From the sequence record PX418923.1: DNA of 50,008 nt, one strand, 5' to 3'. This DNA is from a phage. Below the pieces are notes generated by a model. That model saw nothing but the letters and a program-made list of their open reading frames with translations, was not told where the DNA came from and searched no databases. Of this stretch, positions 35,100-40,298 are shown one piece after another. The first letter of the stretch is position 1. Every line of letters starts with the position of its first letter. A program made the translations under genes and the position numbers.

Positions 35100-35689
35100 G
35101 GTTGTACTTCTCCGTTAGCAATAGTCCAGAACGAATTGTCGCCAATAGTAACTACTTGACCCGCATCAATAGTCATCGTAGGTCCAAAAGACCAAGCGTT
35201 AACATTGTCTGGTATGTCAATACTATTTGTTACATGCTGTCCGTGCCAACTAATAACTGAGAAAGCACTTCCCATTGGTGGGTTGGTTCCATTAAGTTGT
35301 TCTTGTAAAGAAGCATCACCGGCTGCTCTAGCAGCAGCTTCTTCATCAAGCTCTTGTTTACGTACTGCTTCAGTAGGAGCTGTAGCCTTACGTAGGTTAG
35401 TCATACGCTGTTGCCCAGCGTTAAAGGTTCCCTCTAATGTATCCCCCTTAATGTTGTAATAGCGTACATCACCATCAGCAACAGTAAGAAGACTATCAGG
35501 GTTGGTTACATCTGTCTTAACATTAAGCAAAGCATAAGAGTTCATGTCCAAATCTTGGAGCATGGTGTTGTTACCACCCTTCAAGTGAAGAACATCCTCA
35601 TTAATACTTTGCTCAATAACATCGAAGTTATAATTAATCTTCGTGACATTGTAACCAGACGTAATGTTTTGTAACGTTATGTCGGTCAT
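35096..35689 (-). CDS. Tail fiber/adaptor protein (first gene of late operon)
   Basis: ATG at 35689 with AAGAG RBS after a structured 5' leader. Confidence 0.4.
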   Translation of the reverse strand: MTDITLQNITSGYNVTKINYNFDVIEQSINEDVLHLKGGNNTMLQDLDMNSYALLNVKTDVTNPDSLLTVADGDVRYYNIKGDTLEGTFNAGQQRMTNLRKATAPTEAVRKQELDEEAAARAAGDASLQEQLNGTNPPMGSAFSVISWHGQHVTNSIDIPDNVNAWSFGPTMTIDAGQVVTIGDNSFWTIANGEVQP

Positions 35690-35870
35690 AAGAGTCTCTT
35701 ATTATTCTTAACGCTCACTTGCGTGAGCAACAATACCTTTAGCATTAAGTGCCGAAGGCGTATAGTCCTCTCACATGTTAGTATGTTCTCCTCTTCATGA
35801 GAAGAACACCTACATAGCAACTCCCTGTCACTACATGAGGAGAACCTTAAGGCCCACTTTTTAGTGGGAG

Positions 35871-35891
35871 GAATTTCTGCTAGAAAATTTT
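35871..35891 (+). promoter_or_regulatory. Conserved repeated element, copy 4 (GAATTTCTGCTAGAAAATTTT), coordinates approximate
   Basis: Same core as copies at 14260, 39131 and 43232; preceded by CCCACT-TTTT-AGTGGG hairpin and followed by GGGTCAATGCAACTAATG. Confidence 0.4.
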
Positions 35892-36293
35892 AAGGGTCAA
35901 TGCAACTAATGAACCCCCTCCACTAACCCCCTGGCCTACCCCTATAGGCAAAATCTATGAGGAGGTGGGGTGTAATATACTCCCACTATCACCACCACAT
36001 TTTGCCTCACATGTAAATAGGCCTCTAAGCCTAGTGGCACTAGGGGTACAGGCTTATACGCTGGCAAGCCAGCACATGTGCTTATGTGTATGTGCGACTA
36101 CCGTCGCGTATAGGCTTATAAAACGTGCTAACAGCACACTCATACCTGGCATGCATCATGCTACGCATACAGGTACGCTTCTATGCACGTGAACAAGCTG
36201 TATAAATAACCAGTTGACTGTCACCGACACCCCATGGTTGAATGGCCCCACTGTTTGATATCGCCCAGCAACATGGCCAGTATCAAACAGGGG

Positions 36294-36322
36294 TTGACAA
36301 GCTAAGTCGAAAGGCATAGCAT
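36294..36322 (+). promoter_or_regulatory. Sigma70-like promoter P1 (TTGACA-17-TAGCAT), coordinates approximate
   Basis: Perfect -35 TTGACA, 17-bp spacer, -10 TAGCAT; preceded by inverted repeat CTGTTTGATA/TATCAAACAG. Confidence 0.45.
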
Positions 36323-36476
36323 GTGAATCGTAAGTCGGAGCCGACAATAATCGTTGGTTCTGATGTAACGGAGCCAACAATCTTGTTCTCCAGTCTACGG
36401 ACACAATGGGGAATGACACGATAGGTTCTAGGGCATGAGCCAGTTAGTGTAAGGCCGGCAGGCATCTAGTTGGGGA

Positions 36477-36505
36477 TTGACAAGAGTTAGCGAAGTATGT
36501 AACAT
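36477..36505 (+). promoter_or_regulatory. Sigma70-like promoter P2 (TTGACA-17-TAACAT), coordinates approximate
   Basis: Perfect -35 TTGACA, 17-bp spacer, -10 TAACAT; flanks GGGGATTGACAAG...ATGTAAGTC conserved with P1. Confidence 0.45.
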
Positions 36506-36726
36506 GTAAGTCAGTCGGGAAGTAAGGGACTAGGACAAACCTAGCATTGCTAACCTAACTCGCCAGCTACGGGGCTGGACTAGCCGGGATACCGACCGGG
36601 AGACGAAGGCAGTGTAACGTTAGCCTCAATAGCGTTACTGACCGGCTGAAAGCAGCCACAATGTAACAAACGTTCTTTAACAATATGTCTAGTGTGCTGT
36701 AGTGTATCCACATAGGAGGCACTACC

Positions 36727-36948
36727 ATGCGAATCAATCCGAACGACTATGCTATCAATCCGGCAATCATCCTGGCTGGGGTAGCTTGCAGCAATGGTAT
36801 GCGTATGCTAGCTAACGAAATCTTGAAGGCTAGTCCGGCAGCTAAAAGAGAGATTGAACACTTTCAACAAGTGGACAGTTCTCTAAGAGGCATGCTTAGT
36901 ATCCATGTAGCTGCTACAATAGTCTATCGCATGAATGTCGCGTATTGA
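36727..36948 (+). CDS. Hypothetical early protein (73 aa)
   Basis: Strong AGGAGG RBS; flanked by about 35-bp repeats. Confidence 0.5.
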   Translation: MRINPNDYAINPAIILAGVACSNGMRMLANEILKASPAAKREIEHFQQVDSSLRGMLSIHVAATIVYRMNVAY

Positions 36949-37043
36949 AAAATACGCTACACTACAGCACATTAGACATATGTTCTTTAACAATGTGGAT
37001 CAGTAGGCATTAGTAGACCCTCATCTTATACGGGAGAACTACT

Positions 37044-37193
37044 ATGCGTAATGAACGTCAAGCCTACCTTGCCCTTAAGAGCCAGGAAACTGTAGCTCAA
37101 AAAGTGGAACGTATCAGCAAGATGGACAAGCCTTTTGCTTTCAGACTGGCAGCCATCATTGCATGTGACACTAACAAAGGTAAGGTTTGGTGA
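37044..37193 (+). CDS. Small hypothetical protein (49 aa)
   Basis: GGGAG RBS then ATG; below ORF-track size cutoff. Confidence 0.3.
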   Translation: MRNERQAYLALKSQETVAQKVERISKMDKPFAFRLAAIIACDTNKGKVW

Positions 37194-37774
37194 GGCACTC
37201 GAAAGAGTGTCTACTAATGTCTACTGGTCTACATAGCCTAGCCACTCAGGCGTCGATAACGGGAAATGCGATGCTGGCCGGCTTGAGATTCCCTAAGAAA
37301 ATTTTAGGGCTTGACAAAGCGACAGAAAGTGGTAATATGGCTCCCAACAAAGGCAAACGGGCCTGGAGGCTTACAAAGCTCAAACAGTACGTCCCGACAG
37401 GGGGCGGCCTAAGTAAGTAAAGCGCTAGCTGGCTTCGGCCTCAAGGTGAGCGCATGAAAGCGGACGGTACAAAGCGTGGAAGGTTTGTAGAACACGCCAG
37501 TAATGCCTACTATACAGGCATCCGTATCGGGCTCTAGGATAGTTAGAGACGGGCTGTAGCTTGCAGCCATAGCAGGGGAGGATTAGTAGCGTCTGACAAA
37601 CGTGAACCGCCAGAACTGTAAGCCGGAGCAGCTAGCAGGGTGCTACCCTCCGAAGTCCCGCGAAGGGCAAAGTCTTTTTAGACTTAGGTGAACGTTCTGT
37701 ATTACCAATGCAGCGCACTGATAAAGCGTATAGTGCAGAGCAGAACGTTCAACCTAAACCTAGGAGGAACTAAT

Positions 37775-38047
37775 ATGGCCTTCCAAGCTAAGAATCACAA
37801 GCGTCAGCCTGACACTAGAATGAGCAACAAAGCCAAAATTGCACGGCGCGAAGATAAGATAGCTGCACTTGCTGCTGAGAAAACACCAGAGGCACGGAAA
37901 GTGCGGAAGGAAATGAACGATGTTGTATATCGTGGGACCCGTACCAACCTTAATGATTTTTGGAACCCAAAAGGAAAACGTCTCGCTAAAGGTAGTGGCG
38001 TAAAAGCTACCAAAATTAATCGAGCACTCAAAGCAAAAACCAACTGA
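37775..38047 (+). CDS. Small highly basic protein (possible nucleic-acid-binding)
   Basis: TAGGAGG RBS then ATG; Lys/Arg-rich 90 aa. Confidence 0.5.
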   Translation: MAFQAKNHKRQPDTRMSNKAKIARREDKIAALAAEKTPEARKVRKEMNDVVYRGTRTNLNDFWNPKGKRLAKGSGVKATKINRALKAKTN

Positions 38048-38128
38048 GGAAACACAATGTTGGCGCTCGATGAGTACCCGCATTCTACGTTTCAACCGTA
38101 AAACCCTTGAGTTTGTAGGAGTAGTGAA

Positions 38129-38674
38129 ATGAAAGCTATCAAATACATCACCGCTAAAGATGCTGCTGAGCTGGAAAAGATTCAGGCCACCGCTATTAAG
38201 TCGGTACAGAAAGCACGTGTGTTGGTACAAATCGCGGCAGTAGCAACCATTATGCACGCTCACAAGCATGGTGACTGGACGTACGCTCAGAAGCTCGTCG
38301 ATGGTTTGGGTAACACTGTTAATGGTACTGCCCTTGTCGAATGGTTCAAGTTGTATGGTGGACTGAACACTGATGACAACGGATTCATCGGCTGGTCCGG
38401 AAAGGATTATATTGAGAAACACTTTGAGGAAGCTAAAGCCACTATGTGGTGGGAACTCAAAGTTAAATCTCCTTTCAAGGGGTTTGATCTCGAGGCAGCC
38501 TTGCAAAAAGTGATCAAGGATCATAACGCCATGAAAGAGAAAGTGGCTGGCCTTACGCAGGGAGATCAAGAGAAAGTTAACTTCAAAGTTAACGATGCTA
38601 CTATCCAAGCCGTGTTGAAGTTGTGTAACTTCGAAGCAATCATTGAAGAGCCTGTTGTCGAGGAAGCTGCTTAA
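38129..38674 (+). CDS. Hypothetical protein
   Basis: AGGAG RBS; 181 aa. Confidence 0.55.
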   Translation: MKAIKYITAKDAAELEKIQATAIKSVQKARVLVQIAAVATIMHAHKHGDWTYAQKLVDGLGNTVNGTALVEWFKLYGGLNTDDNGFIGWSGKDYIEKHFEEAKATMWWELKVKSPFKGFDLEAALQKVIKDHNAMKEKVAGLTQGDQEKVNFKVNDATIQAVLKLCNFEAIIEEPVVEEAA

Positions 38675-40215: not shown

Positions 40216-40298
40216 GCGGGAGTAGCCCCGTCAGTCTTCTAAACTGATAAGGGTAATTGGAGCTGAAAATGTGAGTTCGAATCTCACCTCCCGCGCCA
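40216..40298 (+). tRNA. tRNA-like element with canonical T-arm, acceptor stem and encoded CCA but no recognisable D-arm
   Basis: 5' GCGGGAG pairs with 3' CTCCCGC; T-arm GTGAG-TTCGAAT-CTCAC; discriminator G and CCA at 40296-40298; internal hairpin TCAGT-CTTCTAA-ACTGA could be an anticodon arm (TCT). Confidence 0.4.

Follow-up and report, generated by a model that had tools for sequence, protein, structure and literature searches.

A conserved, structured leader RNA upstream of a small basic-protein gene in a PA11-like Pseudomonas phage

The window analysed here is the whole 50,008-nt stretch of phage DNA in sequence record PX418923.1, and the interval under study, 37194–37774, lies between two small genes that have homologs in Pseudomonas phage PA11, namely open reading frame (ORF) 055 at 37044–37193 and ORF057 at 37775–38047. 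These and all features described below as part of the locus are on the plus strand. Between 36600 and 38200 the window shares 97.5% identity with the Pseudomonas phages PA11 and PSA11 and 95% with TC6, as well as a patchy 88–91% with O4, K4, IME180, PP21, Ty and others; judged by these matches, the source is a PA11-like Pseudomonas phage whose relatives all belong to the genus Paundecimvirus of the Zobellviridae. The gap between ORF055 and ORF057 measures ~580–640 nt in ten relatives and is longer in FBPa8 owing to an insertion. A first-pass annotation had read the interval as a GC-rich candidate non-coding RNA between a small ORF and the ribosome-binding site of a basic-protein gene. Both landmarks are in place, the former being ORF055 and the latter AGGAGG at 37762–37767 ahead of the ATG at 37775, and the GC content is raised relative to the flanks, if only modestly (0.49–0.54 over 37200–37700 vs 0.40–0.47). 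The extent needed correction, since the interval consists of three parts: the 3' end of the ORF055 unit (37194–37310), a promoter (37311–37338) and a leader RNA of ~430 nt (37344–37774). The first ~117 nt lie 5' of the promoter and are therefore assigned to the preceding transcription unit and not to the RNA. What follows from ~37344 on is almost certainly a structured, non-coding RNA, as had been supposed, and one that is conserved and has covarying helices, but it is a leader and not demonstrably a free-standing transcript.

The promoter, P3, was found in a promoter scan with 10 of 12 matches plus the TG of an extended -10 element and is of the sigma-70 type (TTGACA, a 16-nt spacer, TG-n-TAATAT). 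It is the last of three tandem strong sigma-70 promoters at 36294, 36477 and 37311. Both of its hexamers are invariant in alignment A1, which comprises 11 phages (the window, PA11, TC6, FBPa8, PP21, K4, O4, IME180, Ty, HHBS10_2 and DMTU_1), and many distant loci carry equivalent TTGACA-N17 promoters at the same distance from H1, the first helix of the leader. Judged from the promoter sequence, transcription would start at ~37344–37346. Because no terminator is predicted between P3 and ORF057, the RNA is described here as the 5' untranslated region (UTR) of the ORF057 operon rather than as a demonstrably free-standing non-coding RNA. In A1 the ~55 nt 3' of P3 are near-identical in all phages, the next 270–310 nt differ strongly between the PA11 clade and the O4 clade, and a 3' block at 37647–37690 is invariant again. 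Immediately beyond, at the position of a long hairpin termed P14, Paundecimvirus phages carry three unrelated sequences, two within the O4 clade and a third shared with the PA11 clade, all of which form hairpins. A promoter followed by a segment with conserved ends, a divergent middle and a hairpin whose structure is preserved indicates, taken as a whole, a transcribed, structured leader.

Folding of the single sequence gives a moderate signal (z = -2.75 for the plus strand and -2.17 for the minus strand), and it is the comparative evidence, that is conservation and compensatory changes across ~30 loci, that is decisive. Covariation in related phages, which had been proposed as a check on the candidate RNA, is abundant. 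Two covariance models were used, R1 for the 5' domain (H1, H3 and H4), built from nine Zobellviridae leaders, and R2 for H5–H8. As the underlying alignments were fitted to the models, which somewhat inflates the pairing, the values are given alongside slid and shuffled controls: 89.4% of the cells are paired in R1 vs 36–48% in slid controls, with 14 of 22 pairs changing on both sides and a covariation score of 0.314 vs 0.04–0.09 in controls, and 83.7% are paired in R2 vs 27–46%, with 16 of 21 pairs changing on both sides and a score of 0.51 vs 0.04–0.14. Together the two tests cover 43 pairs in seven helices. The models also recover loci outside their building set at E values of 1e-9 to 1e-18, and the covariation signal is taken to be real because of the controls and this recovery of unseen sequences. 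Further support comes from helices P11 and P13, each of which occurs in 13 sequence versions with 223 of 226 pairs canonical in all (tabulated by hand and checked by script). Some G-U pairs are invariant, UG in 12 of 12 rows and GU in 13 of 13; on the opposite strand they would be C-A mismatches, which identifies the plus-strand RNA as the functional strand.

The fold of the leader in the window comprises H1 to H8, P10–P12, an extra hairpin, P13 and P14, at least 12 helices altogether. Locus numbers with the prefix L are ours. H1 (37351–37364, AGGC-AAACGG-GCCU, placed by R1) has a nearly invariant loop on a stem that is replaced by GGGC/GCCC in L152, CGGC/GCCG in L154 and GUC/GAC in L026. The short and variable hairpin H2 (37368–37380, GGCUU-ACA-AAGCU) was recognised by eye and has weaker support than the other helices; its equivalents elsewhere are stems of 3–5 bp (GUC/GAC, GCU/AGC, GCC/GGC, GGU/ACC), with an insertion in the loop in C171. 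In H3 (37390–37406, CGUCCC-GACAG-GGGGCG; helix 2 of A5) four of six pairs change on both sides and 87.5% of cells are paired, and in H4 (37422–37453, GCGCUAGCU...GGUGAGCGC; helix 3 of A5) eight of 12 pairs do so. The GGC-UUCG-GCC tetraloop hairpin singled out in the first-pass annotation is present at 37431–37440 (GGCTTCGGCC), where it forms the tip of H4 and is thus a minor part of a far larger fold; relatives carry a CCUUGAAUG loop in its place. H5 (37474–37497, GCGUG-[GAAGGUUUGUAGAA]-CACGC; R2 helix 1) has a conserved 14-nt loop and, by eye, the alternative stems GCCGC/GUGGC (C171), GCCGA/UCGGC (L021) and GCGAG/CUCGC (L154). All six pairs of H6 (37503–37521, AUGCCU-ACUAUAC-AGGCAU; R2 helix 2) change on both sides. 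H7 (37532–37548, CUCUA-[GGAUAGU]-UAGAG; R2 helix 3) is paired in 100% of cells with four of six pairs compensatory, and H8 (37552–37568, GGCUG-[UAGCUUG]-CAGCC; R2 helix 4), which is followed by a conserved AUAG, is paired in 90% with three of five pairs compensatory. The loops of H5 (GAAGGUUUGUAGAA), H7 (GGAUAGU) and H8 (UAGCUUG) are near-invariant on fully exchanged stems.

Farther 3', P10 (37589–37603, GCGU-[CUGACAA]-ACGU, with a conserved UAGCAA-type loop) was delineated by informal comparison across loci. The closing helix P11 (37624–37652, CGGAG at 37624–37628 with CUCCG at 37648–37652) encloses hairpin P12 (37633–37645), and its 13 distinct compensated versions are spread over 20 lineages, for instance CGUAG/CUACG in TC6 and CGCAG/CUGCG in K4. 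The extra hairpin (37655–37668, GUCCC-GCGAA-GGGC), located by regular expression and alignment, has a 3-bp stem and a pentaloop of the form G-N-R-M-A; its stem changes from CCC/GGG to CUC/GAG in GP100 and L023. P13 (37670–37685, AAGUCU-UUUU-AGACUU) likewise has 13 distinct compensated versions. P14 (37684–37757), identified as repeat I8 of a repeat search, is a long hairpin with the base UUAGGU/ACCUAA and the arms GAACGUUCUG/CAGAACGUUC, and perfect stems of 10–19 bp occupy its position in every distant locus. The 10-bp inverted repeat noticed earlier ahead of the ribosome-binding site corresponds to these arms (37689–37699 and 37741–37751), which are 11 nt long and 100% complementary; an inverted repeat of 11 nt is in itself not rare, and this one is a minor part of the fold within a predicted interrupted helix of ~30 bp that includes P14. 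A long-range helix between a 5' GGCUU and a 3' AAGUC suggested by RNAalifold was set aside as unreliable, since P13, for which the support is much stronger, would compete with it, and support for pseudoknots or kissing loops (the H5 loop with J6/7 or with the P10 loop) was inconsistent on a check by eye. Motifs for an Rsm/CsrA sponge (GGA), an Hfq sponge (A-rich) or a mimic of a CRISPR repeat (H6 compared with the type I-F repeat), looked at by eye only, were not conserved in the family or not enriched.

No RNA family in Rfam accounts for this structure. The Rfam scan that had been suggested was run with Rfam 15 and found no match on the leader when the window was searched at gathering thresholds; at E<=10 the region 35600–38100 gave only chance-level matches to small nucleolar RNAs and Ysr, and at E<=1 the leaders of 12 relatives matched nothing apart from microRNA-precursor-like models on P14. 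The leader is thus unlike any Rfam family, including ROOL, GOLLD, OLE, HEARO, raiA, 6S and the riboswitch and T-box models.

An explanation without RNA would be that the interval encodes a protein, ORF056, or acts at the level of DNA as an origin, a pac site or an operator array, and both versions are very improbable. An ORF does exist at 37187–37420, also as an ATG-initiated version at 37217–37420; it is annotated in three GenBank records (PA11, TC6 and PSA11) and has its own PHROG, phrog_29349, a match without independent weight because it is limited to the same few near-identical annotated ORFs. Among the 11 phages the frame is open (67–77 codons) in a near-identical trio alone, namely the window, PA11 and TC6; in the other eight (FBPa8, PP21, K4, O4, IME180, Ty, HHBS10_2 and DMTU_1) it is cut short at codon 24. 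Furthermore, it spans the invariant promoter P3 and helices H1–H3, whose variation is compensatory rather than codon-wise. The earlier verdict that the interval holds no convincing coding frame is therefore upheld, and PA11 ORF056 and its PHROG are, from this comparison, very likely not a gene, which corrects the database annotation. For a DNA element it speaks that the region lies ~1 kb from the start or end points of several deposited genomes; the G-U pairs and compensated stems, however, indicate selection on a plus-strand RNA and not on duplex DNA.

The RNA is constantly associated with two proteins, the 90-aa basic product of ORF057 (phrog_5722), always encoded 3' of it, and the 181-aa product of ORF059 (38129–38674, phrog_1448). 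A tblastn search with ORF057 found homologs in GP100 (Zobellviridae), in Kantovirus C171 (Autographiviridae) and in KBC54, which is treated here as C171-like, the taxonomy line of its record being unresolved. In all three, 1.0–1.6 kb of unannotated DNA lies 5' of the ORF057 homolog, and a profile of the Paundecimvirus leaders matches both the 5' block (AGGCAAACGGGCCU) and the 3' block there; further loci from IMG/VR and metagenomes, recovered via the ORF057 protein, likewise carry the leader blocks. For ORF059, 144 homologs reach E<=0.001, many of them on ~50-kb contigs, and 12 of 12 ORF059-bearing contigs examined have an ORF057-like gene of 65–81 aa with the RNA 5' of it. Every examined locus with an ORF057 or ORF059 homolog (~30) carries the RNA upstream. 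RNA, ORF057 and ORF059 thus form a fixed module in these loci, with members in two phage families, Zobellviridae and Autographiviridae; among cultured phages in GenBank only Pseudomonas phages were found to carry it. Scans of IMG/VR with the exact motifs of the 5' and 3' blocks returned only O4, PA11 and two chance matches, and a scan of genome contigs with a 14-base degenerate motif returned only chance-level matches in unrelated bacteria and was uninformative.

At its 3' end the leader appears able to adopt two mutually exclusive states that bear on the translation of ORF057. The Shine-Dalgarno sequence of ORF057, CUAGGAGGA at 37760–37768, is complementary to a U-rich anti-Shine-Dalgarno, UCUUUUUAG at 37673–37681, which overlaps P13. 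Minimum-free-energy folding of all five versions from Paundecimvirus pairs UCUUUUUAG with the Shine-Dalgarno (CUAGGAGGA or CUAAGAGGA), and this helix stacks beneath UUAGGU/ACCUAA and P14. The pairing probability of the Shine-Dalgarno is 0.99 in the window, 0.93–0.94 in the O4 clade and 0.93–0.99 across the five versions, and it stays high in Paundecimvirus across three unrelated P14 sequences; a G-to-A change in the Shine-Dalgarno of the O4 clade preserves the pair with the anti-Shine-Dalgarno. Enforcing P13 costs ~2 kcal/mol relative to the state in which the Shine-Dalgarno is paired. Several lineages outside Paundecimvirus have a near-copy of the 5' strand of P13 on the 3' side of P14 (UAAACC in the L150 type, CAAACA in GP100), so that the 3' strand of P13 again has two alternative partners. 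From these folds it is a reasonable inference that mutually exclusive pairings form an ORF057 switch in this phage. The predicted combined helix (9 bp, a 2x2 loop, 6 bp and 10–11 bp) also has the features of an RNase III substrate, being at least about two turns long, mostly Watson-Crick and intercistronic, and P14 is accordingly proposed as a candidate RNase III site on the basis of its predicted structure.

ORF057 itself is modelled by AF2 as a helical protein with low confidence (pLDDT 69), searches against Pfam and PHROGs returned only a family of unknown function, and a profile search against the PDB returned nothing relevant. A resemblance to the M domain of SRP54/Ffh was discarded, as the Pfam SRP_SPB match (E 0.041) is below the cutoff, the PDB profile search gave no Ffh match and the matching tail is missing from members of 72–73 aa. 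Two observations connect the protein with the RNA. The ORF057 region is 55% identical between the PA11 clade and the O4 clade and has diverged along with the RNA interior, while the flanking DNA is ~88–90% identical. In addition, lineages whose ORF057 has a C-terminal basic tail (...GKRxAKGSGxKxxxINR...) mostly carry the GUCCC-GCGAA-GGGC hairpin before P13, tail and hairpin occurring together in ~5 clades according to protein alignment A7, and those with an ORF057 of 72–73 aa mostly lack both the tail and the hairpin with the GNRMA loop. This co-occurrence and the joint divergence hint at binding of the leader by ORF057 but fall short of proof.

As a tentative working model, favoured here with reservations, the main role of the leader would be to control ORF057 translation in cis together with ORF057 and RNase III. 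The transcript from P3 would be made immediately early by the host RNA polymerase, with 37344–37774 as its 5' leader, in which the first ~320 nt form a conserved multi-helix domain (H1–H8 and P10–P12) with invariant loops and the last ~110 nt would form an expression platform. In one state UCUUUUUAG would be held within P13 and leave the Shine-Dalgarno free; in the other it would pair with CUAGGAGGA, stacked under P14 in an interrupted helix of ~30 bp that resembles an RNase III substrate, and translation would be off. The basic ORF057 protein may bind its own leader, RNase III cleavage of the long helix may separate the leader from the mRNA, and the leader would in this way set the timing and level of ORF057 translation in cis. 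Several points weigh against this model. Outside Paundecimvirus the pairing probability of the Shine-Dalgarno is variable (0.30–0.97), so that the switch applies to this phage and not to the whole family, and within Paundecimvirus the anti-Shine-Dalgarno is invariant, the one pair-preserving change being its sole comparative support. The ORF057 model is of low confidence and matches no RNA-binding family, and the co-occurrence of tail and hairpin has exceptions (C171/L021, L154, L156 and L159) and involves closely linked loci. Moreover, a domain of ~320 nt with at least ten helices and invariant loops far exceeds the needs of known protein-autoregulatory operators, a size and complexity that hint at another or an additional function. 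No report on transcription or non-coding RNAs of Paundecimvirus phages was found in the literature; a bulk catalogue of ~10,000 viral structured-RNA candidates (PMC10690425) may contain fragments of the leader.

In a rival account the domain would be a stable trans-acting RNA, either by itself or joined in a particle with ORF057, ORF059 or both. Freed by cleavage in the long helix, it would be the first product of infection and would act on the host, where it might, for instance, divert or soak up a host or defence protein in the way of a decoy or sponge, or build a large, ornate assembly of the ROOL/GOLLD/OLE kind. This account has perhaps one chance in three in its favour. It draws on the size and complexity of the domain, which has no fewer than 12 helices and numerous loops and junctions that do not vary; the module moves as a unit between two phage families and always holds the first-expressed position, and in all lineages a long perfect hairpin at the 3' end is suited to excision. 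In GP100 and L159, ~90–175 nt of extra leader precede the domain, and since the domain is thus away from the transcript 5' end in several relatives, it behaves as an independent module. What counts against a trans-acting RNA is that it has neither a terminator nor a mapped 3' end, that it resembles no Rfam family (ROOL, GOLLD, OLE, HEARO, raiA and 6S included), that no target can be named and that the domain is never found apart from ORF057, the last being equally expected of a cis element. The boldest form of the idea, a new class of large ornate phage RNA that forms a ribonucleoprotein with ORF057 and possibly ORF059, is cut out of the immediate-early transcript and targets the host in trans during the opening minutes of infection, is possible but doubtful. 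It would amount to an RNA-based host-takeover or anti-defence module exchanged between phage families, which might sequester a host or defence factor or form a higher-order RNA assembly.

The layout of the locus also invites comparison with the lambda pL leader, where an early promoter for host RNA polymerase is followed by nutL, an RNase III-sensitive hairpin and the small basic N gene. In both, the host polymerase initiates at an early promoter, the leader contains an RNA signal, and a large hairpin that can restrict translation directly precedes the ribosome-binding site; the product of the first gene is small, strongly basic and probably disordered. Processive antitermination, with ORF057 in the role of N and the GNRMA-loop hairpin as boxB, or in the manner of HK022 put RNA, would render the host RNA polymerase resistant to terminators of the early operon. 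The pentaloop GCGAA at 37655–37668 looks like a GNRA fold, and boxA-like sequences of the rRNA-operon type (GUUCUUUAACAA) occur upstream in the early region at 36672–36683 and 36982–36993, with GCUCUUUAG ~70 nt before H1 in GP100. Nevertheless, antitermination is an improbable explanation. The motifs in the window lie 670 and 980 nt upstream of the GCGAA hairpin, which is directly preceded by CCCUCCGAA and not by a boxA (CGCUCUUA-like) as in a nut site, so that the adjacent boxA-boxB pair is lacking, and roughly every second lineage is without the hairpin. The Pfam, PHROGs and PDB profile searches detect no homology of ORF057 to N, to any antiterminator or to the arginine-rich motif family; nut and put sites measure 50–70 nt (~50 nt for nut) vs >300 nt here, in a domain of ~320 nt with at least ten helices; and no terminators that would need suppression were identified. 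Another difference from lambda is that the present phage is a virulent podophage.

Other systems share individual traits with the locus. The early region of the T7 group, with its tandem A1–A3 promoters and R0.3-type RNase III sites, resembles it in the three tandem strong sigma-70 promoters, the long RNase III-substrate-like helices between early cistrons and an early gene preceded by a leader several hundred nt long. No conserved multi-helix domain with covariation is known from T7 leaders, and two stalks upstream of P3 differ from those of T7 in spanning a long range and enclosing entire ORFs, in the manner of rRNA operons. ROOL, GOLLD, OLE, HEARO and raiA, ornate RNAs of bacteria and phages, are likewise large and have many helices and invariant loops; the leader is smaller than ROOL and GOLLD, lacks an Rfam match and, in contrast to these ornate RNAs, always serves as leader to one particular protein gene, in lytic Pseudomonas-type podophages. 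With ribosomal-protein leaders, the T4 gene 32 and regA operators and translational riboswitches or T-boxes it shares a structured 5' UTR, mutually exclusive pairings able to occlude the Shine-Dalgarno and genetic linkage to the gene it precedes, but it is much larger than known protein operators and matches no riboswitch or T-box model. As the leader fails the defining sequence or model tests of all these systems, it is classed here as a new RNA family of a generally known kind. Large RNAs backed by dense covariation are seldom newly found, and several known ones proved to be ribozymes or unusual assemblies. The present one occupies the position that is transcribed first of all in lytic Pseudomonas phages, among which are relatives of therapeutic candidates; it is linked to two conserved proteins and moves between Zobellviridae and Autographiviridae. 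As a well-delimited module of RNA and protein that is open to testing, it lends itself to the study of early gene control or host takeover by phages.

Upstream of P3, the first ~117 nt past ORF055 are nearly invariant in A1. They begin, directly 3' of the ORF055 stop codon, with a hairpin read from the sequence (37194–37211, GGCACUC-GAAA-GAGUGUC), the stem of which is invariant in the 11 phages on a loop of either GAAA or UUUU. Overlapping it, 37205–37234 is the right arm of a 30-nt long-range inverted repeat (repeat I1, 87% complementary) whose left arm lies at 36993–37022, so that the arms bracket ORF055; the duplex is worth -47 kcal/mol in the window according to RNAduplex, and about as much in K4 and PP21. 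ORF054 is likewise bracketed, by arms at 36683–36706 and 36958–36981, and K4 and PP21 retain the long-range duplexes around both ORFs (-46 to -70 kcal/mol). The arm at 37205–37234 is proposed, from these computed duplexes, to be part of a processing stalk of the upstream transcript. Between this arm and P3 sits an irregular hairpin at 37235–37283 (AGCCUAGCCA...GCGUCG-loop-CGAUGC...UGGCCGGCU), found by inspection of A1 and the sequence; it is invariant in the 11 phages. The 20–30 nt directly 5' of the -35 element of P3 are clade-specific, with a small hairpin in both clades (CCCUAA...UUAGGG vs AUUUGC-UGGU-GCAAAU). In FBPa8 (L003, ~2380–2710) the P3 promoter is duplicated directly 5' of the leader RNA, and the insertion of ~330 nt between the copies encodes a 68-aa ORF (2473–2679).

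The sequence GTTCTTTAACAA is present in two copies (36672–36683 and 36982–36993) and matches the boxA of rRNA operons, UGCUCUUUAACAA, at 11 of 12 positions. Each copy is followed by the left arm of a long-range inverted repeat of 24–30 nt that brackets the next small ORF (ORF054 or ORF055), an arrangement of boxA and RNase III stalk as in rRNA operons. A segment of 60 nt with boxA, arm and ribosome-binding site matches the unrelated Pseudomonas phages phiPLS27, HHBS51_1 and HHBS14_1 at 86–88%. Farther upstream, 35690–36726 is a stretch of ~1 kb without a convincing ORF between a divergent late gene (ending at 35689, minus strand) and ORF054. It carries the two other strong sigma-70 promoters (36294–36322 and 36477–36505), the first of which is followed by a terminator-like hairpin at 36353–36378, and several deposited genomes start or stop near it.

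Relatives have other RNA elements around the same positions. A type II hammerhead ribozyme (Rfam RF02276, gathering threshold 37 bits) begins at the stop codon of the ORF055 homolog in GP100 (L017, 573–644, 39.8 bits) and in L159 (1314–1384, 45.1 bits); the Rfam scan did not find RF02276 in the window, which has the long-range stalk arm at this place instead, and differing RNA-processing devices may thus serve the equivalent ORF055 junction. L159 also has a tRNA-like element of ~70 nt (~1552–1621) between a consensus promoter and H1, composed of the acceptor-like GGGGUUA/UAACCCC, the T-arm-like GCAGG-UUCAAGC-CCUGC and then an A. The Rfam tRNA model gives it no score at E<=1; the element may set the 5' end of the RNA via tRNA-processing enzymes. 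An Rfam tRNA match of 44.3 bits is located in the window itself at 40216–40295, with an insertion of ~20 nt in the variable region, and ARAGORN makes no call there or elsewhere in the window. Ordinary tRNAs lie a few kb 3' of the RNA-ORF057-ORF059 module in relatives, and in GP100 an annotated pseudo-tRNA lies between the ORF057 and ORF059 homologs.

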